Source of the DNA: a virus
Lineage: Duplodnaviria > Caudoviricetes
Length of the DNA stretch: 35,178 nucleotides
Reading direction: 5' to 3' (one strand)
Virus record (IMG/VR): IMGVR_UViG_3300046028_005878
Coordinates: 1-35,178 of that record
Shown here: one piece after another, positions 595 through 23,475 of the stretch
Position numbering within the stretch: the first letter of the stretch is position 1
How the letters are laid out: the number at the start of each line of letters is the position of its first letter
Program-made: the position numbers and the translations under genes
The notes under the pieces: generated by a model
The model's database searches: none
Told to the model about the DNA's origin: nothing
What the model saw: only the letters and a program-made list of their open reading frames with translations

Positions 595-959
595 GCGTTA
601 TTATCGAACACTTAATTAAGGATCATGGCTTCACACTGGAAGAGGCTAAGTTTAGTTTAATTGGATGGGAGATACGTCCAATGATGCGCGATGAGACTCA
701 GGTGGGTGAGATTATGATTCAGAACAATGAAATGCACTTTGCACTTGATAAGTCGTTTAGAAAGCGCATGGGGCGCGGTAAATATTTTAATCGGTTGCTG
801 GATGAGTTGCTCAAAGAAAAAGGTTTTATTGTGACCAAGCTTTGGGTAAACGACAAAATGACCAAGCTCATTGAGTTAATGGGATTTAAGAAAATAAGGA
901 CAGACGGGGAGTTTAATTACTTCTGGCTAGACGAGGAAACAAGACATGCTCGCAATTAA
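591..959 (+). CDS. GNAT-like (acetyltransferase-fold) phage protein
   Basis: ATGA-coupled; EMHFALDKSFRKR...LIELMGFKK pattern resembles GNAT; such genes often lie among podophage tail/ejection genes. Confidence 0.5.
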   Translation: MSVIIEHLIKDHGFTLEEAKFSLIGWEIRPMMRDETQVGEIMIQNNEMHFALDKSFRKRMGRGKYFNRLLDELLKEKGFIVTKLWVNDKMTKLIELMGFKKIRTDGEFNYFWLDEETRHARN

Positions 960-1956
960 AAAACCAAGTGTCACATTTCTGCCCATTGCGACTTCTAAGC
1001 GCATATCAGGATATATTGACGTTCCATACGGATCACACTATACAAACGCTAAATTCCAGCCTAAACGCGGCCCTGCAATTGCTGTTTTTGCGGCGGCAGG
1101 CACTATCGGTGCGGGCGTTTCGCTTGGAATTGGTACATTTGCTGGCGCAATGATGGTTGCTGGTGGTGTTGCTTCTGCGCTTGGTGCAATTACAGGTAAT
1201 AAATTTCTTTCTACATTTGGCACAGTCGCTAGCTTAGCTGGTGGTGTGACAGGTGCATTTTCAGCGGCAGAAGGCGGTTTATTTAATTACAACCCATTTA
1301 CAGAAGGTTTAGGTGGTAGTCAATTAGGCGCCGCGGCTGGTAAAGCTAAAAGTTTTTTTAGTGATGTTTTTGGGTCAGGTTCATCTGAGGCGGTAGATGC
1401 AATGGGCGTATCAGGTGATGCAATGGTTGCCAACGTGGTAGATGATGCAGTACCTAGTATAACTGCGGAATCGTTTGCTAAAGATGCAGCAGGTAGTTTT
1501 GGCGGTGGTACCTCAATGGGGGTAGATTTAGCTTCTAATGCAGGCAGCTTCGTGGCAAAGACCGCGCCTAAAGGCGGCATGTTTGCTGAACTATTAGGCA
1601 ATAAAGATGTAATGAATGCTGTGGGTGGCGCAGCAGATGCATACGGCGATTATGCAGACCGTGAGCAAAACCAACCATTAATTGATGCCAACGTAGATTT
1701 ACGCAATGCGCAAACTGGTCAAGTTAATTATGAAACACAACTTGCACAGAACCGTTACAACAATATGCAATCACAACCTAATGTAGATATTGGTGTGAAT
1801 CAAAATGCACAAGTCTATGGTGCAAATCCAGTACAGGGATCACCGCGCATAGCGGTGGCTATGAATGGTGAAGTAAAGTATATGACCACGGATGAATACG
1901 CAGCATATAAATCACAGCAAAGCGGTGGCGGCTTACTACAACAAGGGGCAGCATAA
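946..1956 (+). CDS. putative ejection/pilot protein with Gly/Ala-rich hydrophobic N-terminal segments
   Basis: GAGGA RBS at ~933; GA-rich membrane-like helices; position in virion module. Confidence 0.6.
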   Translation: MLAIKKPSVTFLPIATSKRISGYIDVPYGSHYTNAKFQPKRGPAIAVFAAAGTIGAGVSLGIGTFAGAMMVAGGVASALGAITGNKFLSTFGTVASLAGGVTGAFSAAEGGLFNYNPFTEGLGGSQLGAAAGKAKSFFSDVFGSGSSEAVDAMGVSGDAMVANVVDDAVPSITAESFAKDAAGSFGGGTSMGVDLASNAGSFVAKTAPKGGMFAELLGNKDVMNAVGGAADAYGDYADREQNQPLIDANVDLRNAQTGQVNYETQLAQNRYNNMQSQPNVDIGVNQNAQVYGANPVQGSPRIAVAMNGEVKYMTTDEYAAYKSQQSGGGLLQQGAA

Positions 1957-2402
1957 TGGCAGAATTTAACGGCACGCCACAAGAGATTGGCGAACAGATA
2001 GCAAAAGCAGTACCACCAGAAATGCAAGAAGCGTTTGCGCGAGTAGTCAAAGCTGGCATGAAAGTGATGTTCTCGGAAGAGACGCATGACATGATGATGG
2101 AGCAACTTGCCGCCGATGGTGATATGGAGCAAGTGCTAGGCGAAGGCATTGCTGGCTTAATGTTGCTGCTATTTCAAAAAAGCAATAAAACCATGCCGCC
2201 TGAGGTTCTAGTGCCTGCTGGTATTTATTTACTTTCAGAAGCGGCCGACTTTACTGAAAAAATTATGCAGGACAAAGTACCGCCAGATGTAATGGCTGGT
2301 GCTATTCAAGTGATGACGGGCATTATCTTTGAAAAAATGGGTGTGCCTAAAGACAAGCTTGATGCAGCAATGCAAAAAGCTGAGCAAGGCGGTTATCAAT
2401 AA
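1956..2402 (+). CDS. hypothetical virion-module protein
   Basis: TAATG coupling at both ends; protein-like composition. Confidence 0.65.
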   Translation: MAEFNGTPQEIGEQIAKAVPPEMQEAFARVVKAGMKVMFSEETHDMMMEQLAADGDMEQVLGEGIAGLMLLLFQKSNKTMPPEVLVPAGIYLLSEAADFTEKIMQDKVPPDVMAGAIQVMTGIIFEKMGVPKDKLDAAMQKAEQGGYQ

Positions 2403-3337
2403 TGGCTGGTTTATTGGGAAGCGTGTTAGCTGGTGCGGCTGGTAAGGTCGCTGATGGTCGTGTTAAACAGATTGAGCGCCAAGAAGCCTTTAATATGGAA
2501 AACGCTTTGCTGGATGCGCGTATGGATAAAGAAGTTCGTCTAAAGCAAATGGGCTATGAAATGGACGATGCCCGCACTGCTAAACAACAAGAAAAACGTG
2601 CTGGATATTTTAATGAAGTGGAAGATACCACTAAAACACCAGAATCAGTGATGAACAAATACACTGATGCAAACGGTGTTGAGCAAGTTACTAAAGCAGG
2701 TGGTGAATCCGTTACTACTAAACGCGCGGCCACGATGGAAGATGCTACAGCGCGTGCTATTAAAGCTGGTGATTTAGAAACGGCAGAAGGCCTGCTGAAA
2801 ATGTCACCGAAGAAAGACAAGTCATTTGATAGCATTAAGCTTGATGATGGCTCAGTGATGGCGTTTGATAAATCCAATGGCACTGGCAAGATTATTAGCA
2901 AAGGCGGCGGCACGCTTGATGTACCTAAAAATGAAATTGATTTAGCTTGGCGTATGGCTGATGGCGACCCTAAAAAAGCTGCAGAGATATTAGTCAGTCA
3001 AAAAGCTAGAGTAAGTGCGGCAGGTCGCGCACCAGATAAGCTAGACAATGATGACTTATCTTATGCTGATTGGAAGAAAAAGCCTGCCAATAAAGACAAA
3101 GGCCGTGATGATTACACCAAAGAAAAATCATCATGGGGTAAGGAAAATGATTTAGGCATTCAAACTGTGACCGAAGAACCAGTGTTAAATCAATTAAACA
3201 AACCAATTATTGGTAAAGATGGTAAGCCAATGATGACCACCAAGACACAACGTAAAGAGCGCGTGCCAGAGAAAAAAGAAGCGCTTAAAACAGGCCTTGT
3301 TAAAAGCAAAGACGGCAATTATATCTATCAACGCTAA
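2402..3337 (+). CDS. putative ejection protein
   Basis: MAGLLGSVLAGAAG N-terminus then charged coiled-coil, typical of internal virion proteins; TAATG coupling. Confidence 0.6.
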   Translation: MAGLLGSVLAGAAGKVADGRVKQIERQEAFNMENALLDARMDKEVRLKQMGYEMDDARTAKQQEKRAGYFNEVEDTTKTPESVMNKYTDANGVEQVTKAGGESVTTKRAATMEDATARAIKAGDLETAEGLLKMSPKKDKSFDSIKLDDGSVMAFDKSNGTGKIISKGGGTLDVPKNEIDLAWRMADGDPKKAAEILVSQKARVSAAGRAPDKLDNDDLSYADWKKKPANKDKGRDDYTKEKSSWGKENDLGIQTVTEEPVLNQLNKPIIGKDGKPMMTTKTQRKERVPEKKEALKTGLVKSKDGNYIYQR

Positions 3338-3364
3338 TCAACTTTTTTCAAATGCATGACAGAT

Positions 3365-3396
3365 GGGATAGAGCAAAATGCTTTATCCCTTTTTTT
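3365..3396 (+). terminator. Rho-independent terminator/attenuator upstream of the giant gene
   Basis: GGGATAGAGCA-AAA-TGCTTTATCCC stem (one G:U pair) followed by T7. Confidence 0.75.
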
Positions 3397-3414
3397 ATTT
3401 CTAAGAGTTGAACA

Positions 3415-6400
3415 ATGCCAATCGTAGAATATCGCGGTAAGAAGATTACGCTACCAGATGACATGAGTGAGGCAGATATTAATAATGCCATGCCATCAAT
3501 TGCAGATCAGATTGATAGTGATTTTCTGGAAGTAGAGAAACCAAAAGAATCTAGTGCTGGATTTGTTGATAAAGCAAAAGGTTTTGCTAAAGATTTAGCG
3601 TTAAAACCATTCCGTGATGCACTTACCATTGCTCAAATGACTGACAACCGTTCAGTTACAGAAGGTTATGATGGTGCAGAATCCAAAGAAACTGGCTTTG
3701 ATAAAACGGCTGGAAGCCGCGTATTGAGAGAAGTTGCTACTAAGCCACAAAACACGCTTAACAAAGGTGCAAAAATTGTTGATGGCGCCGCTGGTATTGC
3801 TGAGGTCGGCCTCAGAAAAGGCTATGCTGGGCTTGGTAGAATAGAGGCGGGGGCATTGCAGCTTGCTGGTGATACGTTCGGTTCAGACACTTTAAAAAAC
3901 ACGGCTCAAGATCAACTTAAATACGCAAATGAATTAGAGAATGCAGCTGTATTGCGAGGTACAAAATCAAAGACTTTTGAACCTGATGCATTAATGCAAG
4001 ACGCACCTAGAGTAGCGACTAATGCTATCGGTTCAGTAATTACCAGCGCCCCAGCCATAGTAGGCGCAGCGCTTACAGGTGGTAGTGCTATCCCTGCTAT
4101 ATTTGGAACATCAGCACTAAGCGATTACGGTGCCAGTGGCGACGATTTAAATACTGCAGGTAAAGTAGCGCATGCAGTCGGTATGGGGGCAGCCGAAGCA
4201 ATAGGCGAGAAAATCGGCGGTACTGATAAGGTTGCAAAAGCCTTAGAAGAAGCGCTAGGTGGTAAACAAAATCTAATTAAATTAGGCGTAAGTCTTTTAA
4301 CTTCTGGCGCTAAAGAGATCCCGTCAGAAGAGGTCACAACTACCGCACAATTCCTGCTTGATAAAAACAAATACTTTGGCTTAAACCAGAATGCAACACT
4401 TGATGACTACATTGAACAAGTTATTGAAACTGCAAAAACAGCCGCTATGCAGGGCGCTGGTATGGCTGGTGCTGGTGGGGTTATTAAAGCTGCTCTTAAT
4501 GGCGGTCCTGGGAACAAAGAGCCAGAAGCAATAAACAACCAAGGCATTGAACGCATATTGGCTGCAAAGCTAATGGAAGATCAACAAAAATCCGCTGAAT
4601 CACAAGCCGCACTAGAAAATATCACACTGCCAGAAACCAGCGTAGATGAAGCTATTGAACTAGCCAAAATTGCTATTGACGCACCAATTGCCAAACCTAC
4701 AGGATTATTGGCCTCATTACCAATCAATGACCAGGCTATTAACGCTGCAGATATTCTAGGGGATGAACATGTCGTCAGTGCAAATGATGGGCTTGCCAGC
4801 GTGGTTGAGACTGCCGCTGAAGGCGCAAGCGATAACTTACAAGGAAGCTTGGGAGATATACTTAATAAGTCAGCAGGAGGGGTCAATAGTGGACCAGTAT
4901 ATAACCCTGCCGAAACACTTACACAAAGCAGCGGAAGCGGTTTGGATGATGGAATTGGAAGCCAGCCAGACAATGCATTAAGTGAGTTGTCATCACCTAA
5001 CGCGGAAATGCCTTCCAATAGAGTTTCCACTAACTCCGAGCCTTCTCCCAATTTCACTAAAGCTAAATCCTTGCTTAATAAGCTCGTTAGCGATGGACAA
5101 ATCCCACTTGAGTCCATCAGCGTTTCTGACTTTAAACGGAATACCTCTACGCTTGAGAGCGCTGTTAATGGTAGATTCGCTGAAGCCAATAATATTTCCG
5201 ATTTGGTAAGTAGTTTTACCATCAAGCAAAAGGGATTTGACAAGCTCAATATCCCAACTCAGGCTTCGGTGCTCTCTAATGTGATCGGCATGGCTGAGAA
5301 CGACAAGATTGGTGATGGCGTTGTTGGCCCTTCTCTCATCTTTATGATGGACAACCTCAGAGGTAAGCAATTTTCTTCCGAGGAACTTCTCCATAATAAC
5401 GCGGTGCTCTCTCATACGCTTTCCACTCTTGGTGACCCTGCGATACCCGTTGTCAAGATAGGCGGTTCTGTCAAAAACACTTCTACAATAAATACTGCAG
5501 AAAAGATTGGCTCTACCCTTGGAATGGGAGGGGCTGACGGCGTAATGCTTCCCGCAAGAGGTGCAAGTGACGTTGACAATATTTCTTCGGTTAAAAGCTT
5601 GTTGGCAGATGGGGGTGCAAAAGAATCTCTTGCTTTTAACTCTATTAAACCTACTAGCGGTGACAAAAAAATCAACGGAACAGGTGGTACAATTGACATT
5701 AGGCATGACGTTACTCCAAATAGTAATGTTGTGTTAGGGGGGGATGAAGCTACAACTTCATTCACCCCGACAATTTTACCATCAAAACCAGTAGATTTAA
5801 ACAAAGCTACATCATCTGAAAACGTCAAAACGGCAGAGGCCGCACCAATATTGGCTTCTGTATCACCTGTTGAATCTAACGGTTTAATAGAAGTTGCCAA
5901 AATCGGCGGTAAAAACTCTAAAGAATCTATCAGCGTTAAACAGTCTGGTGATAGATTGGCCGTATTGCATAATGGCGAACCGCTGATTGACTTTGATACC
6001 GAGCAAGATGTAACCGTGCCATTGAATGCCACTATTGACGATATTAAAAAGGCTGTGAAAGCTTCTGGTCAGTTTAATAAACAAATACTGTCATTCAACA
6101 AAGAGTATGCAGGCGTTAATCCAACAACAGCAAATACGGTTGATATTGTTAAGCCAATTGAAGCGCCTATTTCAAAACGCACTCAAATCAATGAAAAGTT
6201 TGAGCAGAACAAAGAAGTATTACGTGCATGGATGCCTGATATGGATTGGGCAACCATTGGTGGTCGTATCATCCGTGATGATGATAATCAAGTATCTGGC
6301 AGAACGACATGGGAGACTAAAGATTATGACTTGGACGCGATTCGTAAAGGTAGCGGATTGTCATTTCCTAGCATGCAGAAAGCCGTTCAAAAGGCGCTTG

Positions 6401-9400
6401 ATGGTAAACCATTAAGCAAGGTTGAAAACGCGGCGATTGATGCCATGATTGAGCTTGCTGAAACGATTAAAAATAGCAATCAAACTGAAGCTGAACTAGA
6501 CGACAATCCATTTTTAACCATTGAGGAAGAAGATGCATTAGCGCAGCTTGAAAGCGACATGAACTGGATGGCTTTACTTGAGCAATCCGCTTCTGACGAT
6601 AATATACTTGCATCCATCAGTAGCCAAGCGCAAAATTACCAAGATGCATTTAATAATGACATAGGAGAATATCTTGAACAAATTGCTGAATATGAGCGAC
6701 AAGAGCAAAGAAATGTTAGCGAAACTAACACCAGAGAGCCGCAAGAAAGTGCTGGACGCAATGAGCGTGCGCGTGAAAACGAAAGCAATACAGATACTGA
6801 AAGCCAAAAACAAAGCGAAACTAGCGGCGAGTCAGCTGCCAAAAAGCTAGATTTACTTGGTGATGACACCGCAGGGAAACAGGCTATTGCAACTGAATAC
6901 AAGCCAATTAAATATGCAGAAGCTGAAAGTTTTGTAGATGATAGTATTTCTAACGTTTATGGTGAAGACCATTTAGAAACTTACAAAGCGCAGAATGTTG
7001 AGAATGTTGAAAAAGTAGTAGATTTAGTTAAGTATGCTTTACCTGCCAGCAAAGCTAATGGTTACAACTTAACCTATGAGCCGTCAAGTGGTGGAAGTCA
7101 GTACCTAAAGTTTGAAAAAGCAGATGATAATTTTGAAGTCAGAATTGCAGATCATGCTGCTGGCTATAAGTTTGATGTAGAAAAAGATTTAGAGTACGAC
7201 GATACATTAGAACAGAAATACTGGGTTGATACTGTATTAATACCACATTTAAAAAATAGGAACGCCGCTAATGTTAGTGCTGATGGCGTGAATGTTAAAG
7301 CGAACTTTAACTCAGTAGCCAATTCTGACAAGTCAGACGCAAAAACTAGCGGCGAGGTAAGTAATTTAACACAACAAAAAAATAATGCAAGTGACCTCTT
7401 AGGGCAAGATACATCAAAACAGCAGGCTATTGCAGATGCCGAGCGTACCAAAGATGCTAAACGCAATTCTGGTACCGACAACCAAGATGCATTCACTTTA
7501 ACTGGCTCAAATAGCGAGGCAGATATTGCCGCCGCTGCTGGTGCTCAAGACCTATTTCGTGATGGCACGAAAAAGGTTGATAAACCAGCAGGAGTGACAA
7601 CTGCATCTTGGGTAATCAGAAATAAAGACACAGGCGAAGTCATACAAGAAACATTCCAAAAATCTGTAGCCGATAAAATAAATACGGATAAGTATGAAGC
7701 CGTGCCAGCTATGCAGCACTTGCAGGAAATGAACGACCCTGATAGTAAGGTTCGCAAATATGCAGAACGAGATAATCAAACTCAAGATGAAGTTGCAAAA
7801 GCGACTAAAGCACTAGATGCCGCTGGCGTTACTGGCACTGAAAAGCTCAATACTATTGCACAGGTAAGGCAAGGCAACTTAACGGCTGATGAGGTGGCGA
7901 GTGCGCATAAGAATAAGATTGATGATTTTGGGGAAAAAATTGGTGGCGCTAAGAAAGATACTTACACCAGAAAATTAGAGCAATCAAAAGAAGTTAATGT
8001 TGAATCAGAGCCATTAGCTAAATCATGGCCTGAACCAAACTATCAAGAGCTACTAGACAATGGAGCTGATTCATTTGTTGTAGGTTTCTTACGCGCTGTT
8101 CGTGAAGAAATACCAAGAAAACCGACTAAATCATATCGTGTTGCTGGATGGGTAAAAAATGTTACTAAGTTGCGTGATACTGCTTATGGATTATTAGATG
8201 GTTCAATTGATGCTGAAAAAGCAAAATCAGTATTGGCTTATGCTGCAAGCAACTCGCATAACATGGATGGCGTGCAAAGCCGTATTGAACTATATCAGCG
8301 TGTTGGTCATAGCAAATCACTAAAAGGGGTAAAAGTAAGTTTTGGTGAATATTCTATTCGTGATGGTATTGAATATAAGCCATCATTAAAATTATGGACT
8401 GTTGAAAAACAGCAAGATTCAACTGCATTTTCAAGCTGGCCTAAAGAGCTATCTACTGGAAAAACAAAACAAGAAGCGATTGATAACTTTGTTGCAAAAT
8501 ATGATTCACTAGATATTCAAGATGCGCCTAAGAGTAAAGATGTATCTTTTGATATTTACTCATACCCAAAAAATACAGGTAAAACAGGATTCTTTATCGG
8601 TAAGAAAGTAGGCCGTAATCATATTGATTTAGAAAACTTTGCTACAGTAAAAGAAGCTAGAGAATATAAACGAGATCATCATGCTGAACTTGTAGTAAAA
8701 CTTGAAAAGTTTAAAGAGATACCTAACGTTAGACGCGATACTAATAATCCTCGCGTTGGCGAAGATATGCGTAATGGTCAAGATGTTACACCAGAATTGT
8801 TTGCTAATACATTTGGTTTTAAAGGTGTTGAGTTTGGCAATTGGGTGGAAGGAAGTAAACGACAAAAAGACCTGAACGAATCGTTTGATGCTTTAATGGA
8901 TATGGCAGCAATTTTAGGTATTCCACCTAAATCAATCTCATTAAATGGTGAGCTAAGTTTGGCATTTGGTGCGCGTGGAAGTGGTGGTATAGACCCTGCA
9001 AAAGCGCATTATGAAGCTGATTATGTTGTTATTAACATGACTAAGAAAGATGGCGCAGGTTCTTTAGGCCATGAGTGGTGGCACTCGCTAGATAATTATT
9101 TCTCACGTTTGAGAAATAAAAAATCTGAGTTTATGACGGCACCAGTTTTAGACGTTTCTCTTGCTTCAAGAGGTTCTAACTATCATCATTCTGGCGCAGT
9201 TAGAAAAGAAATGATTGATGCTTTTGGTGAAGTTGTTAAAGCAATTAACATTTCTTCACTTAAAGCACGTTCTAATAAGCTAGACGCAAAACGCTCTAAA
9301 GAATATTGGTCAACTGGCCTTGAAATGTCTGCTAGGGCATTTGAAACATATCTTATTGCAAAGCTACAAGATAACAATGCTTCTAATGACTACTTAGCCA

Positions 9401-12400
9401 ATATTGTAGATGAAGAGACTTGGAAGGTTGCAGAATCACTAGGATGGGAATTAGACGGAAGTTATCCATATCCTACCGCTGCTGAAATACCTGCGGTTCG
9501 TGCGGCATTTGATAACTTCTTTAATGTCATTGAAACCAAAGAGACGGACAAGGGTACTGCACTTTTTAGTCGCAGCAAGTCACAGACCGATACACCAGAG
9601 TTTAAAAAATGGTTTGGTGATAGTAAGGTCATTGATGTTAATGGTAAGCCTATGGTTATGCACCATGGCACATTTGCCACATCTAATTTTGACAGCTTCT
9701 ACAGGTTTAGTCATTTTGGCACCAAGCAGCAGGCTCAAAAGTTGCTGGATGATACTGAGGAAAACTATGAGCCTTACGAAGATTCCGATCCAGATGAACC
9801 GCCTTCAAGAATACTTCCAGTGTTTTTAAGTATAAAAAACCCTGTGCGTATTTCAGACGATGGCTCTCAACACAGCACATATTCCATTGCCGAAGATTTG
9901 CTATCACAAAACATCATCACGCAAAAAGAGTTTGATTATTTGACGGTAGGGTTTGATGCCAACCTAGAGGATAACCTTGCAGAACTTATACAATCCAAAG
10001 GTTTTGATGGACTCGTTTATAACAATAAATTTGAAGGCGATGGGGACAGTTTTGTGATTTTAAACCCAAGTCAAATAAAATCAGCCATAGGCAACAACGG
10101 AAATTTTGACGAATCAAACCCTGATATTCGCTTCTCTAAAGCCGATACATCTGGCGGCATGCCAAAAGCTGATGTTGAAAAATCAGTTAATGCCTTACGC
10201 GCTAACTGGAAAAACGCACCTCAAATAATCGTAGTTGATGATATGAATGACACAGCCATACGTGAAGCTGTGCGTGCCGAGAATGATCGTCAACTATCTC
10301 AAGGCGCTACAGGCCAGCCAGAAGGTTTCTTTGATGCAGGCAAGGTTTATATTGTTGCCAGTGAAATGAATTCTACTGATGATGTTGCACGTGTAGTGAT
10401 GCATGAAACATTAGGGCATTACGGTTTACGTGGTGTATTCGGTAAAGACTTAGCAAAAGTGCTTGAAAGCATTACTATCATGCGCCGTAAAGAGCTGAAT
10501 GCTAAAGCTAAGCAATACGGGCTTGATACCAGTAAAGCCAGTGATCGGTTAATTGCCGCAGAAGAAGTCTTAGCTGAAATGGCACAGACTAATCCGCAAC
10601 TTGGATTTGTTCAACGCGCAATAGCGGCTATTCGCACATGGCTACGCGATAACGGTTTTAAAATGAAATTGACTGACAATGACATTGTTGCCAATTATTT
10701 GATGCCTGCGCGCGCTTATGTGCAACGTGGTGGTAAAGAACAATCAACTGGTGATATGGTTGCGGCATTTAACCGTACCAACCGAACTCCATCAAAAGAA
10801 TCAGGCGATACGCATTTAACTGCATTCATGGAAGCCATAGCGCAGAATAAAGACCTATTTGAATATCAAACAATCAATTCTAAAAATATTAACGACATAG
10901 CTAAAGCTATTGATATTGGTTATGAAGTAAAGCCGCTGGGCGCAAGTCAAACTAAAATCAAGAATGCAACCAAGGCATGGGAGGTTTCTGTTCCAAATGC
11001 TACGCACCGCAGCGGGGTAATCTATGAAAAAGGCAATGATGTTTGGATTGATGTATCGCGTTTAATTTCAGGTAATGACCGTGGCAGTGCAATCTATGCA
11101 ATAGCGGCTGATTACGCACATAATAATGGCAAGGTATTGATTGGTGATCCAGAAGGCCTATCAAGAAAAGCGCTTTATCGCCGTAATGAGAATATGCTGT
11201 CTAGTGCTTTAAAACATGGCACAACTAAACATTTAATGCCGCATATTGCGCAAGAAGTGCCAAGTGAGTATTATCAAGGTCATGAAGCTGAGTTTGGCAA
11301 GAGTGTACGTGCGCTAGACTGGATTGAAGGTAATGATGTGCATAACATTAAAGAAATGCTTTACAATTCATACGATAGCGCAATAAAGAATATCCCAGAG
11401 GTTAAAGATGTTATCTACAACACAGAATCAGGAAAGTTTGAGTACACTGACGGCAGACCCTTTACTACTCAAGATAGTGAAAGAGTTTCTACCAGAATCG
11501 CCAATGAGCCGAATAATCCCTATCGCGCGGGAAGCGGCACGATTAAGAGATCGGCTCTCATCAACACCTTTCTACGCAAAGAGAGCGCAGGAAGAAGGGC
11601 AGAGTTATTGGGTGAGGCGGTCAATCAGCTATCAAGGAACGGACTAAGCCCTGAACTTAAAGGCGTGATGTACTCACGCTATAATCCAAATCAATCAAGC
11701 CTAACCCCTCAATGGGATAGCCCAGAAGCAAGTAAGATAGATTCTCTTATCTATACGCTACAAGACAAGCACATTGACTTAAAGCGCGTCACTCAAGCCA
11801 TTAAGAAAGCTGGCAATGACATTTCAGACAGATGGAATGCCTACCTGCAAGAAGAGCTTTATCATGGACGCACCGCTAAACGCACACAAGACTTTATCAA
11901 AGATGACTTAGAGCCATTGATTGAAGATATGCGCATGCGTGGCGTGAGCATGGCAGACTTTGAGGAATACTTATGGATGCGTCATGCGGAAGAGCGCAAC
12001 GTACAGATTGCTAAGGTCAATGCTGATATGCCTGATGGTGGTTCTGGTGTGAGCACTGCAGAAGCACAAGACTACCTAGAAAATCTACCAGCTTCAAATA
12101 AATCTAAGTATGAATCGCTAGCTAAGCGCATTGATTTAATTAACCGTAAATCACGCCAAGTGCTGATTGATTACGGTATTGAATCGGCTGATACGATTGC
12201 AGCATGGGAAGGTGCGTATAAGAACTATGTGCCGCTCATGCGTGAAGATATGGACGCAGGCTTTGGTAATGGCACTGGTCAAGGGTTTAGTGTCAAAGGT
12301 AACTCATCTAAGCGTGCTACTGGCTCTAAACGTGCCGTGGTGGATATTATTGCCAACATTGCACAGCAGTATGAGAAAAACATTACTCGTGGTGAAAAAA

Positions 12401-14361
12401 ACCGTGTGGCAACTGCACTGATTGGATTAGCAAAATTAAATCCTAATGAAGATGTTTGGCAGGTTGATACGCCACCAACCATTACTGATGTGAACAAAGC
12501 TACTGGCTTAGTTGAAACTCGCACCGACCCTAATTACAAATCACGTAATAACGTGGTAGTGGCGCGCATTCGTAACCGTTTAGGTAAAATTGAAGAGCGC
12601 TCAGTGGTATTTAACCAATTTGATGAACGTGCTATGCGCATGGCTGAAAGCATTAAGAACCTGGACATGGACCAGCTTAATGCAGGTTTAATTTTCATGG
12701 GCAGTATTACGCGCTATTTCTCAAGCATCAACACGCAATACAACCCAATTTTTGGTGTAGTCAACATCACCCGTGATGTGCAAGGTGCCATGCTTAACCT
12801 TACAACAACTGAGATTGCTGGCAAGCAAAAAGAAGTGCTAAAAAACGTAATGCCAGCTATGCGTGGTATTTATCGAGATTTACGTTCAATTAGAAAAGGT
12901 AATCAACCAGCCAATACAGAATGGGCGCAACTTTGGGAAGAGTACCAAAACGAGGGTGGTGCTACTGGATTTAAAGATATGTATGCTAATGCTGGTGAAC
13001 GTACTGAAGCTTTAGCAAAAGCGCTTGATCCAGAATGGTGGACTAAAACACTGGCTGGTAAAGTGGTTTCAATCAATGGTATTTTAACCGTTCCAGAAAC
13101 CGCACTTAAAGATAAAGCCATTAAGCCTGTATTTGATTGGTTATCTGACTACAACCAAACGCTTGAAAATGCAGTTAGATTGGCCGCTTATAAAGTTGCG
13201 CTAGATAATGGCATAAGTAAACAACAAGCAGCTAGCTTGGGTAAAAACTTAACCGTAAACTTTAATCGTAAAGGTTCTATGGGTAGAACCGCAGGTTCAC
13301 TCTATGCGTTTTTTAATGCGGCTGTACAAGGCACTGCGCGTATTGGTGAAACATTGACAGGACCCAAAGGCAAACAGATTATGGTTGGCGGGATTGCATA
13401 CGGAATAATGCAAGCTGTTTTATTAGATGCGTTAGGTTTTGATGAAGAAGAGCCGCCAGAGTTTGAGCGCGCAACTAATTTTATCATTCCCACTGGTGAT
13501 AAAAGCTACGTGACTATCCCAATGCCATTAGGTTTTAATGTATTTCCTAACCTTGGGCGCATTTCAGCCGAGTGGGCAATTAATGGCATGGAGAACACGA
13601 CTGAGCGCGTATTTGATTTATTTGGTGCTTTGATGGACTCATTCAACCCATTAGGCGGTAATGGTAGGATTGATTCAATCATCATGCCTACCGCGTTTGA
13701 TCCGTTTAACGATTTATCAAAAAACAAAGATCATACAGGTCGTTCAATTGCGCAAGAAGATTTCAGCAGCTTAGATCCAACACCAGGCTATACACGCACC
13801 CGTGATAAAGCTACTGCAATTAGTATTGAGTTGGCAAGATGGATTAACAATTTATCTGGCGGTGATGACTATGAACAAGGCCAATTAAGCCCAACTGGCG
13901 ACCAGATTGAATATCTGATAGGCCAAGTGACTGGTGGTGTTGGACGCGAGTTGGTTAAAACAGCGGCAACCATTGAAACCATAGTGACCGGTGAAGATTT
14001 ACCTACTTATAAAATACCATTGGTGGGTAGATTTATTGGTAACAGCAAAGGGCAAGCGCCGCAAGCTGGTAAGTTTTACAATAATTTAACCAGAATCAAT
14101 AAACTTGAAAACGGGTTGATTGGCCGTGATAGAGACGGCAAAGACGTTGATACATTTATCAATGAAAATCCAGAAGTGAATTATATTGATTATGGAAAAA
14201 AAGCTTACAGCGCAATTAGGAAACTAAGACAATATAAACGTGAGCTAGTTGAGCAAGATGCGGATCGCAATGAAGTTAAATTGGTGGATGACGAAATCAC
14301 AATGATTATGACTGAGTTCAACGACACCGTTGCTAATGCAAAAGTCGAACAGTCGCCTTAA
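3415..14361 (+). CDS. large polyvalent protein, probably virion-delivered (zincin-like metallopeptidase x2, LPD1-like, ADP-ribosyltransferase ART-PolyVal-like, GNAT-like, C-terminal LPD38-like)
   Basis: IDDFGEKIGGAKKD (~7918); GVEFGNW...GSLGHEWWHSLDNYF (HExxH 9070-9084); YWST..EMSARAFE; TPEFKKWFGDSK..GKPMVMHHGT...PSQIKSAIGNNGNFD (~9580-10135); MHETLGHYGL..EEVLAE (10402); IPMPLGF..SFNPLG..NKDHTGRSI near the C-terminus. Confidence 0.85.
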   Translation: MPIVEYRGKKITLPDDMSEADINNAMPSIADQIDSDFLEVEKPKESSAGFVDKAKGFAKDLALKPFRDALTIAQMTDNRSVTEGYDGAESKETGFDKTAGSRVLREVATKPQNTLNKGAKIVDGAAGIAEVGLRKGYAGLGRIEAGALQLAGDTFGSDTLKNTAQDQLKYANELENAAVLRGTKSKTFEPDALMQDAPRVATNAIGSVITSAPAIVGAALTGGSAIPAIFGTSALSDYGASGDDLNTAGKVAHAVGMGAAEAIGEKIGGTDKVAKALEEALGGKQNLIKLGVSLLTSGAKEIPSEEVTTTAQFLLDKNKYFGLNQNATLDDYIEQVIETAKTAAMQGAGMAGAGGVIKAALNGGPGNKEPEAINNQGIERILAAKLMEDQQKSAESQAALENITLPETSVDEAIELAKIAIDAPIAKPTGLLASLPINDQAINAADILGDEHVVSANDGLASVVETAAEGASDNLQGSLGDILNKSAGGVNSGPVYNPAETLTQSSGSGLDDGIGSQPDNALSELSSPNAEMPSNRVSTNSEPSPNFTKAKSLLNKLVSDGQIPLESISVSDFKRNTSTLESAVNGRFAEANNISDLVSSFTIKQKGFDKLNIPTQASVLSNVIGMAENDKIGDGVVGPSLIFMMDNLRGKQFSSEELLHNNAVLSHTLSTLGDPAIPVVKIGGSVKNTSTINTAEKIGSTLGMGGADGVMLPARGASDVDNISSVKSLLADGGAKESLAFNSIKPTSGDKKINGTGGTIDIRHDVTPNSNVVLGGDEATTSFTPTILPSKPVDLNKATSSENVKTAEAAPILASVSPVESNGLIEVAKIGGKNSKESISVKQSGDRLAVLHNGEPLIDFDTEQDVTVPLNATIDDIKKAVKASGQFNKQILSFNKEYAGVNPTTANTVDIVKPIEAPISKRTQINEKFEQNKEVLRAWMPDMDWATIGGRIIRDDDNQVSGRTTWETKDYDLDAIRKGSGLSFPSMQKAVQKALDGKPLSKVENAAIDAMIELAETIKNSNQTEAELDDNPFLTIEEEDALAQLESDMNWMALLEQSASDDNILASISSQAQNYQDAFNNDIGEYLEQIAEYERQEQRNVSETNTREPQESAGRNERARENESNTDTESQKQSETSGESAAKKLDLLGDDTAGKQAIATEYKPIKYAEAESFVDDSISNVYGEDHLETYKAQNVENVEKVVDLVKYALPASKANGYNLTYEPSSGGSQYLKFEKADDNFEVRIADHAAGYKFDVEKDLEYDDTLEQKYWVDTVLIPHLKNRNAANVSADGVNVKANFNSVANSDKSDAKTSGEVSNLTQQKNNASDLLGQDTSKQQAIADAERTKDAKRNSGTDNQDAFTLTGSNSEADIAAAAGAQDLFRDGTKKVDKPAGVTTASWVIRNKDTGEVIQETFQKSVADKINTDKYEAVPAMQHLQEMNDPDSKVRKYAERDNQTQDEVAKATKALDAAGVTGTEKLNTIAQVRQGNLTADEVASAHKNKIDDFGEKIGGAKKDTYTRKLEQSKEVNVESEPLAKSWPEPNYQELLDNGADSFVVGFLRAVREEIPRKPTKSYRVAGWVKNVTKLRDTAYGLLDGSIDAEKAKSVLAYAASNSHNMDGVQSRIELYQRVGHSKSLKGVKVSFGEYSIRDGIEYKPSLKLWTVEKQQDSTAFSSWPKELSTGKTKQEAIDNFVAKYDSLDIQDAPKSKDVSFDIYSYPKNTGKTGFFIGKKVGRNHIDLENFATVKEAREYKRDHHAELVVKLEKFKEIPNVRRDTNNPRVGEDMRNGQDVTPELFANTFGFKGVEFGNWVEGSKRQKDLNESFDALMDMAAILGIPPKSISLNGELSLAFGARGSGGIDPAKAHYEADYVVINMTKKDGAGSLGHEWWHSLDNYFSRLRNKKSEFMTAPVLDVSLASRGSNYHHSGAVRKEMIDAFGEVVKAINISSLKARSNKLDAKRSKEYWSTGLEMSARAFETYLIAKLQDNNASNDYLANIVDEETWKVAESLGWELDGSYPYPTAAEIPAVRAAFDNFFNVIETKETDKGTALFSRSKSQTDTPEFKKWFGDSKVIDVNGKPMVMHHGTFATSNFDSFYRFSHFGTKQQAQKLLDDTEENYEPYEDSDPDEPPSRILPVFLSIKNPVRISDDGSQHSTYSIAEDLLSQNIITQKEFDYLTVGFDANLEDNLAELIQSKGFDGLVYNNKFEGDGDSFVILNPSQIKSAIGNNGNFDESNPDIRFSKADTSGGMPKADVEKSVNALRANWKNAPQIIVVDDMNDTAIREAVRAENDRQLSQGATGQPEGFFDAGKVYIVASEMNSTDDVARVVMHETLGHYGLRGVFGKDLAKVLESITIMRRKELNAKAKQYGLDTSKASDRLIAAEEVLAEMAQTNPQLGFVQRAIAAIRTWLRDNGFKMKLTDNDIVANYLMPARAYVQRGGKEQSTGDMVAAFNRTNRTPSKESGDTHLTAFMEAIAQNKDLFEYQTINSKNINDIAKAIDIGYEVKPLGASQTKIKNATKAWEVSVPNATHRSGVIYEKGNDVWIDVSRLISGNDRGSAIYAIAADYAHNNGKVLIGDPEGLSRKALYRRNENMLSSALKHGTTKHLMPHIAQEVPSEYYQGHEAEFGKSVRALDWIEGNDVHNIKEMLYNSYDSAIKNIPEVKDVIYNTESGKFEYTDGRPFTTQDSERVSTRIANEPNNPYRAGSGTIKRSALINTFLRKESAGRRAELLGEAVNQLSRNGLSPELKGVMYSRYNPNQSSLTPQWDSPEASKIDSLIYTLQDKHIDLKRVTQAIKKAGNDISDRWNAYLQEELYHGRTAKRTQDFIKDDLEPLIEDMRMRGVSMADFEEYLWMRHAEERNVQIAKVNADMPDGGSGVSTAEAQDYLENLPASNKSKYESLAKRIDLINRKSRQVLIDYGIESADTIAAWEGAYKNYVPLMREDMDAGFGNGTGQGFSVKGNSSKRATGSKRAVVDIIANIAQQYEKNITRGEKNRVATALIGLAKLNPNEDVWQVDTPPTITDVNKATGLVETRTDPNYKSRNNVVVARIRNRLGKIEERSVVFNQFDERAMRMAESIKNLDMDQLNAGLIFMGSITRYFSSINTQYNPIFGVVNITRDVQGAMLNLTTTEIAGKQKEVLKNVMPAMRGIYRDLRSIRKGNQPANTEWAQLWEEYQNEGGATGFKDMYANAGERTEALAKALDPEWWTKTLAGKVVSINGILTVPETALKDKAIKPVFDWLSDYNQTLENAVRLAAYKVALDNGISKQQAASLGKNLTVNFNRKGSMGRTAGSLYAFFNAAVQGTARIGETLTGPKGKQIMVGGIAYGIMQAVLLDALGFDEEEPPEFERATNFIIPTGDKSYVTIPMPLGFNVFPNLGRISAEWAINGMENTTERVFDLFGALMDSFNPLGGNGRIDSIIMPTAFDPFNDLSKNKDHTGRSIAQEDFSSLDPTPGYTRTRDKATAISIELARWINNLSGGDDYEQGQLSPTGDQIEYLIGQVTGGVGRELVKTAATIETIVTGEDLPTYKIPLVGRFIGNSKGQAPQAGKFYNNLTRINKLENGLIGRDRDGKDVDTFINENPEVNYIDYGKKAYSAIRKLRQYKRELVEQDADRNEVKLVDDEITMIMTEFNDTVANAKVEQSP
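4769..4981 (+). CDS. small overlapping gene in the +1 frame of the giant gene (70 aa)
   Basis: AGGGGA RBS 4758-4763, 5 nt before ATG; globular-looking LPAWLRLPLKAQAITYKEAWEIY...LPKHLHKAAEAVWMME...TMH while the main frame here is low-complexity G/S/D/N. Confidence 0.6.
   Translation: MSSVQMMGLPAWLRLPLKAQAITYKEAWEIYLISQQEGSIVDQYITLPKHLHKAAEAVWMMELEASQTMH
4993..5706 (-). CDS. HNH homing-type endonuclease (two C4 zinc fingers + HNH_3-like domain + two HTH repeats) nested antisense in the giant gene
   Basis: CTTC..FCTPIC and CTSC..FCSIYC; EHRVIMEKFLGRKL..EVVHHKDERRANNAITNL..SHADHIREH; TTYQIGNIIGFSESTI and SFSEIGRRLGVSGNSI HTH-like repeats; GGAG RBS 7 nt upstream. Confidence 0.9.
   Translation of the reverse strand: MPNVNCTTCSVDFFVTASRFNRVKSKRFFCTPICQQAFNRRNIVNVTCTSCGKHYAVSPSHSKGRANLFCSIYCRSVFDRTAYLDNGYRRVTKSGKRMREHRVIMEKFLGRKLLTSEVVHHKDERRANNAITNLVVLSHADHIREHRSLSWDIELVKSLLLDGKTTYQIGNIIGFSESTINSALKRRGIPFKVRNADGLKWDLSIANELIKQGFSFSEIGRRLGVSGNSIGRHFRVR
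5707..5801 (-). promoter_or_regulatory. putative promoter and structured leader of the nested HNH gene
   Basis: TTTAAA-17-TAAAAT with extended -10 TGn (5773-5801); 5' hairpin GGGG..ATGAAGT-TGTA-GCTTCAT-CCCC (5740-5768); second hairpin ACATTACT/AGTAACGT covering part of the GGAG RBS. Confidence 0.6.
6674..6850 (+). CDS. small basic overlapping gene in the +1 frame (58 aa, TTG start)
   Basis: AGGAGA RBS 6663-6668, 5 nt before TTG; MNKLLNMSDKSKEMLAKLTPESRKKVLDAMSVRVKTKAIQILKAKNKAKLAASQLPKS; main frame here is a polar E/R/N/S linker. Confidence 0.5.
   Translation: MNKLLNMSDKSKEMLAKLTPESRKKVLDAMSVRVKTKAIQILKAKNKAKLAASQLPKS
6818..7434 (+). repeat. bipartite direct repeat flanking an internal module of the giant gene
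   Basis: AAACTAGCGGCGAG at 6818-6831 and 7343-7356; CAGGCTATTGCA at 6880-6891 and 7423-7434; peptide TSGE...DLLGxDT..QAIA occurs twice. Confidence 0.8.
11408..11647 (+). CDS. candidate overlapping gene in the +1 frame (79 aa)
   Basis: GAGGT RBS 11398-11402, 5 nt before ATG; main-frame codons shift toward AGA/AGG/GGA/TCG in this stretch. Confidence 0.45.
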   Translation: MLSTTQNQESLSTLTADPLLLKIVKEFLPESPMSRIIPIAREAARLRDRLSSTPFYAKRAQEEGQSYWVRRSISYQGTD

Positions 14362-14512: not shown

Positions 14513-14694
14513 TCCTTGTGGCGTCCTTGTGGCTATTTGTAGATAATTTATAACTGCCTATGCATAACAGATATGGTTATAATTGGCTTGTAGACTAGTT
14601 ATAGTTAAGCATGGATTATCTGTTAGCAAGTTCGAATCTTGCTGTCCCGACCAATAAACATAGTATTTACAAGGTATTTGCATTTCCTTGTGGC
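14513..14694. other. attP: attP region: tRNA-derived core flanked by arm-type repeats
   Basis: TCCTTGTGGC direct repeats at 14513-14522, 14524-14533 and 14685-14694 around the core; downstream of the integrase. Confidence 0.8.
14626..14653 (+). other. att core = 3' end of a tRNA-Pro (T-arm + acceptor strand + CCA); not a complete tRNA
   Basis: GCAAG-TTCGAAT-CTTGC-TGTCCCG-A-CCA; CCGACCA end is characteristic of bacterial tRNA-Pro; no 5' half upstream. Confidence 0.8.
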
Positions 14695-15248
14695 AGATTA
14701 GAGGCAGCAATAGCCTCTAGTCGTATCTTTTCACTTAGCTTTTGTAGCTCAATATATCCAGATATTGCTTCATCTTCTGTTTTAAATCCATAAACTCTTT
14801 TTTCTAAATACTTAGTATGTATCCTAGCTTGATAGTGTATTTCCCCATATTTTTTATAAGGGTAAATCCCTTTGGCTTTTTCTCTTAACCCATACTTGTA
14901 ACCGTGATAATTTTGAACCTCACAATTTGCTACGTACGCAAATGCAATTCTTTTAAATATTTCATCACCATACCAACCAAGAGCATTATTCATTGCTGAT
15001 AAGATAAATCTACAGTTATCAACTGAATATCCTTTGTCGCTATCTATTCTATCTAAACTAGCTGCAAATGGTCTTTTTTTGCCATTTGGTGGTGATATAT
15101 CAAATGATATTTTTGTAAGGCAGCATTTACCATTAGCAATATCTAAAAGATGATTAAATTCATCACGTGACAAGTCAAAATCTATACCGCGTTGTTTGGC
15201 ATTTTTATAAACATCACGGTACATTTGTGCGATAATCTTTGAATCCAT
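14667..15248 (-). CDS. HNH-like endonuclease with AP2-like C-terminal domain
   Basis: AKQRGIDFDL..KCCLTK..SLDRIDSDKGYSVDNCRFILSAMN; KGIY..YQARI..FKTEDEA; AGGAG RBS. Confidence 0.75.
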   Translation of the reverse strand: MDSKIIAQMYRDVYKNAKQRGIDFDLSRDEFNHLLDIANGKCCLTKISFDISPPNGKKRPFAASLDRIDSDKGYSVDNCRFILSAMNNALGWYGDEIFKRIAFAYVANCEVQNYHGYKYGLREKAKGIYPYKKYGEIHYQARIHTKYLEKRVYGFKTEDEAISGYIELQKLSEKIRLEAIAASNLPQGNANTL

Positions 15249-21265: not shown

Positions 21266-22909
21266 TTAAGCAGCTTTCTGCATATCAAAATTCGCTTGAT
21301 GCTTCAAAAACTCGACCAAAATCGCGCGGACTTTGTTTTCTTCACTGCCGAAGTCACGCGATTTTAGGAATGACGAGATAGCATCTTGCTTTTCAACGAC
21401 TACAGCGCGTAGTTCTACTGGACTGATCTTTACGGTTCCAGCTTCATCTACGGTTGTTAATAGTGCGGAACTGCCAGTTTTAACAACCTCACTAAATGCA
21501 ACTTTTTGAGCTTCTTCATTAGCAGCTAAAACTTCGGCTTGTTCGGCTTTCTCTTTGGCTAATCGGTCAGCCTCAATTGACGCAAGTGCTGTGGCCTCGG
21601 CATCCGCTTTAATCTTAGCTTCACGCTCGGCTTCAACTTTTTTATGCGTTTCAATGCGTGATTTAACAAGCAAGTCGAAATCGTCTGTGGCCTTGAAAAT
21701 GATTGATTGCAGGTCTGCAAATAACATTTCATAACCAGCCGCGTACTCTTTAAACCATGTTTGTTTGCTACGAACGTCATTAGCCACCTGATTAGCCGCA
21801 ATAGTTGAATTAGCCACCAATGTACTAATTGCATCTTGCATCTTGTCGTATCTGCTTTTGCCTTTGACAGCTTCACCAAAGTTAGGCATCACTAGATTTA
21901 AGCGAATAGGCGCAGTATCTTTTTCAAGCGCATTGCTCATATTTTTAAATGCCATTTGTGCGCATTCAATCATTGCTTGTTTTTTAACTAAATCCTGCGC
22001 AATAACATCTTTCTCAAGCTTCAAAGCGGTTACGCGCATATCTTCACACCACGTATCAATCATGCGTGCAGCTTCACCCACTGTGACAGTTTGAGATAGC
22101 ATTGCTTCTTTAGCTAACTTTGCTTGTTCGATACCATCACGTAAATGTTTAGCTGCAGATTTAGCATCTGCAAAGTCTTGATCTGTCACCAGTGCAATAC
22201 TTCTAACATCGTTTAAGCGTTTAGCTAGCGCCTCGCCGTACTCTTTCATGTTGTTAGTAGTGATTTCACCTTTTGCCTGAATGAATAAAGCAGGTAGGGC
22301 AATGATTGCTTGCGCCTTGGGCTGTTCAATTGATACGGTTGGAACGTGAGTTTCAAGGTCACGTTCAAATTGCGCCCAGCCCTCTACAAGATGCTGTTCT
22401 TGTACTTTATTTGGGTAAACCCATACGCTAGCCGTGTTTTCTTCTGTACCGTCAGAAATAGTGAATAACAATTTTTCAGCGCCAGTAACATAAATAATTT
22501 GCTGGCATTGCGGCCAGTGAATTTCAGGCAACTCGCCATTTTTAACTTCCTTATAATGAGCGGCATTGAATTGTTTTGTTTCCCATGCAATATCCCCCAT
22601 GAAATTTAATCCATCGCATGATGCAGATAGCTTCCCAAAAGAATAAGTTACTGGTGATAGTTCTTCACCTAACATTTTTTCTACAACAACTCTTGCTAAC
22701 TTCTCAACCTCGTGTCCTTTGTTAAATATTGCTTGAGTAACATGATTAACCTCTGGTACTAATCCAGTTTTCTTTTCATCTAATAATTGAGTACGTGACT
22801 TATAAGGCGATAAACCTAACATTGAGCTAGCTTCACTTGCTCCAAAGTGCTCTAATCTATATGAATGCCAAGAATTTTCACCTTGGATTAAATTGTGTGA
22901 CGTTCTCAT
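21266..22909 (-). CDS. YqaJ/lambda-type recombination exonuclease with coiled-coil extension
   Basis: QG..WHSYR..GASEAS..KGHEVE..SASCDGL..WETK..QCQQ. Confidence 0.9.
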
Positions 22910-23475
22910 GCTGCTATCCTTCCGTGGTTTTCATGAAATGAATAATTTATATTTGCATTTTTTCTAGCGGAAATGGCTTCATCTAAGCTTGTAAATTCTC
23001 CAATATGAATAGATCTTTTATTAACCATTAATTTTGCTATAAACTTTTTTCTTCTATTATCAAAATGAACCCCTGTAAATCCAGTTGTATTAGATTTGCT
23101 TTTTGGTAAATTTTTACTGTTTGTTGACTGGTCTACATTTCTTAAATTTGATAGCTTATTGTTTAATTTATTTCCATCAATGTGATCAATTTGTACAGGC
23201 CATACATTATTAAAATAAGCATATACAACCCTATGCGCATAAAACTTTCTTCCAAATAAAGTGCCTTTTAAATATCCACTTCTTGTTATAAAATTAAATG
23301 CTAGTTTGTTTTTGTAAACCTTATTCCATGCTGATGCATTAGATTTCGCAGACCTTTTTTTACTTTTAAAAAAATGATCAGATCTTTCTTTCCAATATAT
23401 ATTTCCTGTTGATTCATCAATAAAAATCAATGCTTTTAATACATCTATTGGGATTTCTAACATGGCAATTTTCAT
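22906..23475 (-). CDS. HNH-AP2 homing endonuclease inserted between recT and exo
   Basis: YAHRVVYAY..IDHIDGNKLNNKLSNLR..N; NTTGFTGV..IGEFTSLDEAISAR..FHENHG; markedly AT-rich. Confidence 0.9.
   Translation of the reverse strand: MKIAMLEIPIDVLKALIFIDESTGNIYWKERSDHFFKSKKRSAKSNASAWNKVYKNKLAFNFITRSGYLKGTLFGRKFYAHRVVYAYFNNVWPVQIDHIDGNKLNNKLSNLRNVDQSTNSKNLPKSKSNTTGFTGVHFDNRRKKFIAKLMVNKRSIHIGEFTSLDEAISARKNANINYSFHENHGRIAA

Follow-up and report, generated by a model that had tools for sequence, protein, structure and literature searches.

An HNH endonuclease gene nested antisense, codon for codon, within a giant polyvalent protein gene of a phage

Organization of the locus

The 35-kb virus record IMGVR_UViG_3300046028_005878 (Duplodnaviria; Caudoviricetes), analyzed over its whole 35,178 nucleotides and hereafter called the window, carries integrase, RecE/RecT-like and NinG genes together with one giant gene, inside which an HNH endonuclease gene lies wholly on the opposite strand (Table 1). 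We confirm that this nested arrangement is real. The two genes use identical triplets on opposite strands (register offset 0), and the open reading frame (ORF) translations agree with a sequence-only reading that had placed a 237-residue minus-strand ORF opposite residues 527–764 of an uninterrupted 3648-residue ORF. We refer to the sense-frame product of the shared triplets as the shadow peptide. Assembly error was rejected as a source of the arrangement: overlapping contigs from sequencing run X1, which may be the source sample, cover 3415–8000 with no differing letters, and a contig from a second study enters the HNH gene. A reading of the giant ORF as two genes was likewise rejected, there being no stop and both flanks being carried in one protein in relatives P0003–P0006.

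The giant protein contains Pfam domains LPD5, LPD1, ART-PolyVal, LPD37 and LPD38, a single HExxxH motif at residue 2330, and not one cysteine among its 3648 residues. With several disparate LPD and effector domains predicted in one large polypeptide, it is assigned to the phage polyvalent proteins, a class described as modular and predicted to be packaged and injected, and proposed to be processed by HExxxH-type peptidases (Iyer et al. 2017, PMC5512222). The closest relative of the giant gene lies in a metagenome-assembled genome of Methylotenera, which suggests, and does no more than suggest, this genus as host of the window phage.

Because the triplets are shared, TTA, CTA and TCA in the HNH gene would each give a stop in the giant frame. 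None occurs among its 17 leucine and 23 serine codons, a count that reproduces the one made earlier by hand; the probability of 1.5e-5 then attached to it assumed uniform synonymous usage and becomes ~2e-11 under the codon use of this phage, although that figure merely restates that the host frame is open, so that the independent tests are those made at the level of the family. Over the HNH gene the antisense frame is open for 247 codons, against 88 for the next longest such stretch within the giant gene, and the two other HNH-type genes of the phage use these three codons 16 and 14 times.

The enzyme matches Pfam HNH_3 over residues 101–142 (E 2.5e-8; 33.8 bits, cutoff 24.8) and HTH_38 (E 2e-7), and its profile matches I-HmuI (PDB 1u3e) with an E value of 7e-4. 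Residues H101, H120, H121, N129, N133, H142 and H146 are unchanged across eight aligned family members. On the strength of a predicted beta-beta-alpha-metal motif with catalytic histidine, asparagine and metal ligands, we assign the gene to the HNH_3, I-HmuI-like enzymes; the two zinc-finger-like motifs, HNH motif and two helix-turn-helix (HTH) repeats recognized earlier are all borne out by the translation and by Pfam. A structure model of the enzyme reached a predicted local distance difference test (pLDDT) score of 66 and a predicted template modeling (pTM) score of 0.30, with the HTH repeats as its most confident part.

Table 1. Features of the nested locus in the window
Feature	Position	Strand	Basis or remark
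Giant polyvalent protein gene, 3648 aa, without internal stop or cysteine	3415..14361	+	ORF translation, Pfam
Nested HNH endonuclease gene, 237 aa + TGA	4993..5706	-	ORF translation; triplets shared with host codons 527–764
Sense-frame shadow peptide, host residues 527–764	4993..5706	+	0 Cys, 0 Trp, 0 Tyr; Ser/Gly/Asn-rich
Cassette, approximate extent (HNH gene + promoter)	4990..5800		Stretch without clear similarity to L070
Two C4 zinc-finger-like motifs, C6/C9/C30/C34 and C48/C51/C70/C74	5485..5691	-	Read from translation
HNH core, residues 100–146	5269..5409	-	Pfam HNH_3, family alignment, profile match to I-HmuI 1u3e
Two tandem HTH repeats, residues ~153–186 and ~203–236	4999..5250	-	Predicted DNA-binding; Pfam HTH_38 and weaker HTH matches
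RBS-like GGAG (RBS, ribosome-binding site), 7 nt ahead of HNH ATG	5714..5717	-
Predicted sigma70-like promoter site, 66 nt ahead of ATG	5773..5801	-	17-nt spacer, extended -10 TG
Left flank, near-exact match to another allele, which enters the same HNH gene and is dissimilar farther to the left	4950..4992		Possible co-conversion tract
Right flank, 38–84% identity to L070 (50-nt bins) vs 78–98% from 6201 on	5801..6200		Possible co-conversion tract or relaxed linker

Two further long minus-strand ORFs, 4581–5249 (222 aa) and 5412–6032 (206 aa), overlap the cassette and have no Pfam match. Both are read from the second position of the HNH codons, and as the HNH gene has no NTA codon, TAA and TAG are impossible there; the two ORFs are a by-product.

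A family of nested HNH genes

A collection of 99 loci from viral contigs yielded 91 distinct HNH genes; it is enriched for nested cases, two of which served as seeds for the second scan, from which the 80 best of 254 matches entered the collection. Another frame is open for at least 250 codons across the HNH core in 36 of the 91, distributed over the antisense register of the window (11), a second antisense register (13), the +1 frame (8), the +2 frame (3) and one other. All six of the best tblastn matches to the window enzyme share its antisense register. Seven of the 11 same-register loci lie clearly inside polyvalent-type genes, with hosts of the ddrB-ParB (L021), ART-PolyVal (L022, L072, L073 and L089), LPD38 (L071) and InPase (L074) types, and four were set aside (L075, L088 and L103 as unclear, L096 as intein-hosted). 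L072, L073 and L089 each have the insertion at a point of their own around the conserved start of ART-PolyVal.

Protein databases hold the reverse side of such genes in larger numbers. A phmmer search with the shadow peptide against 1.84 billion representatives returned 71 other clusters at E <= 0.001, 58 of them at least 900 residues long. Among the 70 scanned with Pfam (P0048, of 5200 residues, being left out), 41 contain polyvalent-type domains and none an intein domain. The search proposed earlier for other HNH genes nested antisense in polyvalent genes thus yielded seven further loci and, at the protein level, 71 shadow clusters. One shadow-bearing polyvalent protein, P0012 (residues 110–251), also carries a domain of Acb1, directed against the cyclic-oligonucleotide-based antiphage signaling system (anti-CBASS).

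In a quick tree of the enzymes, the +1 and +2 sets each form their own group (support 98 and 99), 12 of the 13 enzymes of the second antisense register fall in a group of 15 (96), and the methylase-hosted relatives form a separate clade (98). This grouping by register indicates that the register is transmitted together with the enzyme, whereas the host site varies.

Several searches found nothing further. A protein homologue search with the HNH protein gave 207 candidates, none at E <= 0.001; an allele scan for L071 returned L071 itself only; one with the N-terminus of the giant protein as single-protein query returned none; and among 361 genomes of the family of G001, G001 alone matched. The intein-free antisense arrangement was not found in a cultured phage, the window shadow matching only free-standing HNH genes of Gordonia phages Neville and Trax; two further shadows used as queries matched nothing, and there was no match in plasmids. 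No RNA run was among the sequencing runs listed for the window.

Selection on both strands

The reverse of CAY can encode only methionine or valine, and the shadow peptides follow this rule. In a query-anchored alignment of the 71 peptides, the columns opposite H101, H120, H121, H142 and H146 are Met or Val in 70/71, 71/71, 71/71, 70/70 and 66/70 cases, respectively, with Ile or Leu in just 2 of 353 cells opposite histidine. Similarity to the query cannot account for these columns, because Ile and Leu would score equally well. Opposite N128, N129 and N133 every peptide has Ile or Val (71/71 each), opposite R111 every one has Ser, Thr, Ala or Pro (71/71), and a motif score set 69 of 72 proteins apart from all of their own shuffles. 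At the level of the family, these alignment patterns show the HNH strand to be under selection.

Selection is also apparent from the other side. Codons ACA, GCA, CCA, ATA and GTA, which would place Cys, Trp or Tyr in the host frame, make up 12 of 379 codons of their synonymous families in eight nested genes vs 223 of 776 in the free-standing controls, 21 genes in all (Fisher p 2e-29, each codon counted as an independent observation). Among A-ending codons that yield serine in the host frame there is no difference (104/250 nested vs 240/612 controls, p 0.54). The window HNH gene has no host-Cys/Trp/Tyr codon at 62 sites, an outcome with a chance of 3.5e-11 under phage codon use. For the stop-giving codons TTA, CTA and TCA, absence from all eight nested genes is circular, as it follows from the choice of the set; of 51 free-standing relatives, one lacks them as well. 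The pattern of host-Cys/Trp/Tyr codons argues for selection on the host frame too, favoring read-through and disfavoring RNA splicing. Such filtering would not be expected of a peptide that goes unmade, and translation of the segment as part of the giant protein is most likely.

The shadow itself gives little sign of a fold. Its model has a pLDDT of 47 and a pTM of 0.18, with no confident fold apart from two stretches of ~20 residues with mean pLDDT 68–79, and no Pfam or NCBIfam family was found for it.

No sign of splicing machinery was found. Rfam gave no match at E <= 1 over 4500–6300, with no group I or II ribozyme core recognized; Pfam and NCBIfam gave no intein match in the window or in six nested hosts, NCBIfam detecting the intein-bearing controls; and local intein profiles, which found 3 of 3 controls, matched none of 81 test proteins at E < 0.05. 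Judged by sequence, the intein hallmarks (flanking Hint blocks, a Cys/Ser start, and a His-Asn end before Cys, Ser or Thr) are lacking. With no profile match and no Cys anywhere in the giant protein, an intein is disfavored.

Predicted expression signals

That the nested gene has its own RBS and promoter-like elements, as the sequence-only reading stated, was recovered in the form of pattern matches. Antisense promoter sites were ranked with ad hoc, fixed consensus weights. By this score none of the 89 other antisense windows of the giant gene reaches the site at 5773–5801, and the best antisense site of the gene falls within 120 nt before the HNH start in six of eight loci (combined p 3e-4, with few background windows for L022 and L089). 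We regard the site, itself a pattern match, as a predicted minus-strand promoter. The 5' region of the HNH mRNA shows no folding beyond that of shuffled sequence (z -0.84).

The promoter-like sites of L022 (~2340–2370) and L021 (~2930–2945) overlap short inverted repeats, spotted by eye. Possibly, these are candidate operators for autorepression via the HTH domain.

The module slot and signs of mobility

The eight closest relatives of the giant protein (P0003–P0010) align to about residue 520, and four of them align again from about residue 795. None of the eight carries the HNH gene or its sense-frame imprint. Between these points lies an InPase domain in P0003, another module in P0004, and in six relatives a module that we take to be ParB-like from a motif. 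Compared with L070, the closest relative, which has the InPase module in the slot, the dissimilar stretch at ~4990–5800 comprises the HNH gene and the promoter-like site, that is, the HNH ORF and only ~95 nt besides. In this window the cassette, as judged from these alignments, takes the place of a module, and there is no clean empty allele here. The search proposed earlier for alleles lacking ~4985–5800 yielded these eight relatives, whose slots hold other modules. In L064, at ~2324–2357, a related giant gene is broken over two frames within the ParB-like slot module, either by assembly error or by a real frameshift.

A cleaner comparison is offered by the site in L022. The L022 host agrees with the empty allele P0082 at 147/154 residues ahead of the site and 38/45 beyond it; the interval between spans 175 residues in L022 and 53 in P0082. 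Just upstream, the motif W-D-K is present in 105 of 106 empty alleles and replaced by Y/A-D-A in 4 of 4 filled alleles (13 motif-less rows uncounted); a destroyed target site, if co-converted, would give rise to such a loss. P0084, P0021 and P0031 have an insert in the same loop as L022 in distant alleles, and the filled alleles require at least three changes on a FastTree tree of 120 rows, inserts left in. Disjunct presence and absence among close alleles is thus seen for the L022 site, and for the window all eight relatives lack the cassette and hold other modules instead. Furthermore, an InPase domain begins within ~115 residues after the matched stretch in 9 of 70 scanned shadow proteins; because these adjoin InPase, and because InPase fills the slot of the closest relative of the window, InPase-coding DNA is a candidate target.

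Within the window the traces are fainter. A contig from run X2, diverged leftward, matches 4950–5074 with one difference, and the same left junction is present in X1 (which may be the source sample). Together with the right-flank pattern (Table 1), this junction provides hints only of mobility in the window. No contig joining across the cassette was found in runs X1–X5, a result uninformative on empty alleles. A target-site change in the right flank was considered and rejected: 8 of 26 conserved positions differ there vs 19 of 120 further on, and P0005 is similar (6/24).

Proposed mechanism and alternative explanations

We propose that the intact antisense HNH gene is probably a selfish homing cassette with its own promoter, tolerated in the giant protein as an unspliced, dispensable linker. 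Codon use in the nested genes shows that the element lineage employs synonymous codons that leave the opposite frame stop-free and nearly free of Cys, Trp and Tyr, and the sites it occupies in polyvalent proteins are many, lying at various junctions between domains and in loops. The minus strand would be transcribed from the sigma70-like promoter of the cassette and translated separately. By analogy with I-HmuI and mob-type enzymes, the protein would then nick or cut conserved neighboring sequence in a cassette-free allele of a co-infecting or resident phage, and repair would copy the cassette and some flank, replacing whichever module held the slot. With its modular domains, the giant protein, for which packaging and injection are predicted, could bear ~270 extra residues cheaply.

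Several observations weigh against this proposal. Relatives hold InPase, ParB-like or other modules in the window slot, so that ordinary module shuffling could have brought the cassette. In the window enzyme, E124 and K122 replace the family residues Gly and Ile, respectively, and this copy could be impaired by these departures; a Foldseek search with the HNH model gave nothing at E <= 0.001. The promoter ranking, with its ad hoc weights, fails in L073 and L074. Intact HNH ORFs were verified in eight loci, and the 71 shadow proteins are known as protein sequences alone. In the quick tree, seven of eight same-register enzymes group together with a modest Shimodaira–Hasegawa-like approximate likelihood ratio test (SH-aLRT) support of 81, L089 falling outside. 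Finally, GC content at third codon positions is 0.57 in nested genes vs 0.44 in controls, a gap that does not explain the avoidance of host Cys, Trp and Tyr, since the A-ending host-Ser codons are equally frequent in both sets.

The main competing explanation, to which we assign a low but not negligible probability, is that the nuclease is expressed and kept for the benefit of the phage, by cutting DNA of rival phages or of the host or by antisense control of the giant gene, and is moved passively by module shuffling. Purifying selection on the HNH frame does not tell whom the enzyme serves, unrelated modules are exchanged at the slot among the eight relatives, and the mosaic alleles in X1 and X2 could be products of ordinary recombination. 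Less readily accommodated are the exact insertion inside ART-PolyVal with a near-identical empty allele, the loss of a near-invariant Trp codon in all four filled alleles, and the three insertion points around one conserved ART motif (L072, L073 and L089). Removal of the segment by an unrecognized self-splicing RNA or by excision at the protein level, leaving a mature giant protein that lacks it, is very improbable in our view. Introns that contain ORFs can escape Rfam, inteins may harbor endonuclease genes on the antisense strand (13 of the 91 relatives are antisense in the other register, most of them intein-hosted), and the host protein has the HExxxH motif of the peptidases proposed to process polyvalent proteins (PMC5512222). 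Against removal stand the Rfam and intein results, the cysteine-free giant protein, and the consideration that selection against Cys, Trp and Tyr in the host frame would be senseless if the RNA were spliced.

An equally slim chance is given to a relic, lucky or dying, that began as a free-standing HNH gene, landed backwards, happened to be stop-free and is no longer expressed. Survivor bias would favor insertions that keep the host frame open, one free-standing relative in 51 has no TTA, CTA or TCA, and the two departures from the family consensus lie near the active site; however, the catalytic residues, zinc fingers, HTH repeats, RBS and promoter-like site are all intact, and the host frame gives the HNH frame no protection from stops, yet the latter is open far beyond any other antisense stretch of the gene. 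Furthermore, the nearest relatives share the antisense register, so the element appears to have arrived pre-adapted, which counts against a relic. Least probable, and largely refuted, is the idea that the conserved entity is a folded sense-strand polyvalent domain with an incidental HNH reading. The 71 homologues found with the sense peptide and the two better-modeled stretches of the shadow are what such a domain might produce, but the conserved columns obey the antisense code (Met/Val, Ile/Val, and Ser/Thr/Ala/Pro), and the model scores and the lack of a Pfam or NCBIfam family speak against a fold.

Returning to the homing cassette, we lean, by a narrow balance of judgment, toward a broader reading in which it represents a third way for homing endonucleases to reside inside coding sequence, besides introns and inteins. 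A widespread mobile lineage would have recoded itself so that its reverse complement is a benign linker free of Cys, Trp and Tyr, portable into many giant-protein junctions, unspliced, and served by its own antisense promoter. Sister lineages would do alike in other registers, namely +1 for methylases, +2 for giant proteins and the other antisense register for inteins, the register being inherited with the enzyme, and the spread of the element would add new sequence to polyvalent proteins.

Relation to known systems

The strategy is not without precedent, as both a same-strand insertion and antisense endonucleases in inteins have been published. The ShiLan domain is a stop-free, apparently non-splicing same-strand HNH insertion in actinophage methylases (Arsenault, Gosselin, Gogarten 2025, PMC11855218), and the window enzyme is homologous to it, with tblastn matches to ShiLan gp65 and its kin. 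In both systems, so far as the accessible text of that paper describes, a zinc-finger HNH enzyme lies in another frame, adds no stop to the host gene, has no detected intein or intron, and leaves in the host frame a loop predicted to fold poorly; patchy distribution, a feature of ShiLan, is seen among the nested genes at the L022 site. They differ in that the ShiLan HNH lies on the host strand, lacks an RBS and is proposed to use leaderless GTG initiation, whereas the present one is antisense with its own ATG, RBS and promoter-like site; and in that the ShiLan host is a methylase called non-essential by the authors, whereas here the hosts are polyvalent proteins, with LPD38 in that of the window, the sites are many, and HTH repeats are added. 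In the same accessible text we found no mention of an antisense arrangement and no test of host-frame selection.

Antisense LAGLIDADG and VSR-like homing endonucleases inside inteins are described by Gosselin et al. (bioRxiv 10.1101/2025.01.02.630785), who cite Gorbalenya 1998 and Gogarten 2002. As portrayed in the available portion of that preprint, those genes resemble the present one in lying opposite an open host frame and in apparently remaining mobile; there, protein splicing discards the junk peptide, whereas here no flanking splicing domain is present and the enzyme is an HNH. The T-even mob and seg genes are free-standing endonucleases capable of intronless homing (Edgell et al. 2010, PMC2988022). 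They and I-HmuI share with the nested enzyme an HNH core fused to DNA-binding modules, and cutting at a distance with co-conversion, if it operates here as it does in them, would explain replacement of a whole module slot. Those genes, by the partial account consulted, are intergenic or overlap their neighbors by a few bases, whereas the present one lies wholly within a coding sequence of 3648 codons. The polyvalent protein class includes the host gene, and nested antisense genes are not among the features described in the consulted part of its survey (PMC5512222).

Overlapping genes of another kind have been seen in bacteria, where long, fully embedded antisense ORFs under purifying selection are reportedly described as novel ORFs in resident genes (PMC8850804, PMC7457138, PMC9927249). 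There the nested ORF is the new partner, whereas here the nested gene belongs to an old enzyme family and the host-frame peptide is new. A full-text literature search, whose coverage excludes most subscription journals, found no report of an intein-free antisense HNH gene nested in another gene. The earlier reading of a non-splicing element, tolerated antisense as an in-frame linker and selected on both strands, is thus supported by family-level selection, by the lack of intein or intron signals and by the lack of a confident fold, and its description as a different strategy gives way to the precedents above.

These comparisons bear on annotation and on the study of overlapping genes. Part of the apparent inter-domain sequence in polyvalent proteins is the back of a nuclease gene; the nucleases themselves are left out by gene callers, which list the reverse side as an unknown "domain" of the host. 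The functionality of long antisense overlaps in prokaryotes is an open question resting on few cases; the present set provides a family of such pairs from nature, fully nested and with at least 70 divergent members, in which selection can be read on each strand. The 2023–2025 observation of a "hidden HNH" would grow beyond one methylase family into a general strategy, and the codon data provide the first quantitative sign we found that such inserts are translated and retained in the host protein. The pair L022/P0082 names a candidate target site open to assay.

Related arrangements and neighboring genes

Antisense HNH genes in the other register occur in intein-bearing terminase or helicase genes (13 of the 91 distinct genes, with intein-type matches in most): L091, L095, L097, L101, L102, L105, L110, L111, L113, L120, L121, L122 and L126. 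In L095, for example, the host gene spans 517–2973 on the minus strand and the HNH frame 1761–2564 on the plus strand. The accessible part of the preprint (bioRxiv 10.1101/2025.01.02.630785) lists antisense LAGLIDADG, antisense VSR-like and in-frame HNH endonucleases, with no antisense HNH listed. A separate clade comprises same-strand +2 HNH genes in giant phage proteins, one of them with ART-PolyVal: L005/L038 (host 4815–12206), L009/L048 (host 3570–9221) and L034 (host 705–6170).

Among the methylase-hosted relatives, Cylindrospermopsis phage Cr-LKS3 (L015; OM373202.1) has an unannotated same-strand HNH gene at 2234–2986 within the coding sequence of DNA methylase gp59 (1980–3830). By its predicted frames, this cultured cyanophage is a ShiLan-like case outside actinophages, and eight more occur in metagenomic methylases.

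Elsewhere in the window, the two other HNH-type genes lie at 22906–23475, between the RecT-like and RecE-like genes, and at 14667–15248 on the minus strand, between the giant gene and the integrase gene; both have ordinary codon use.

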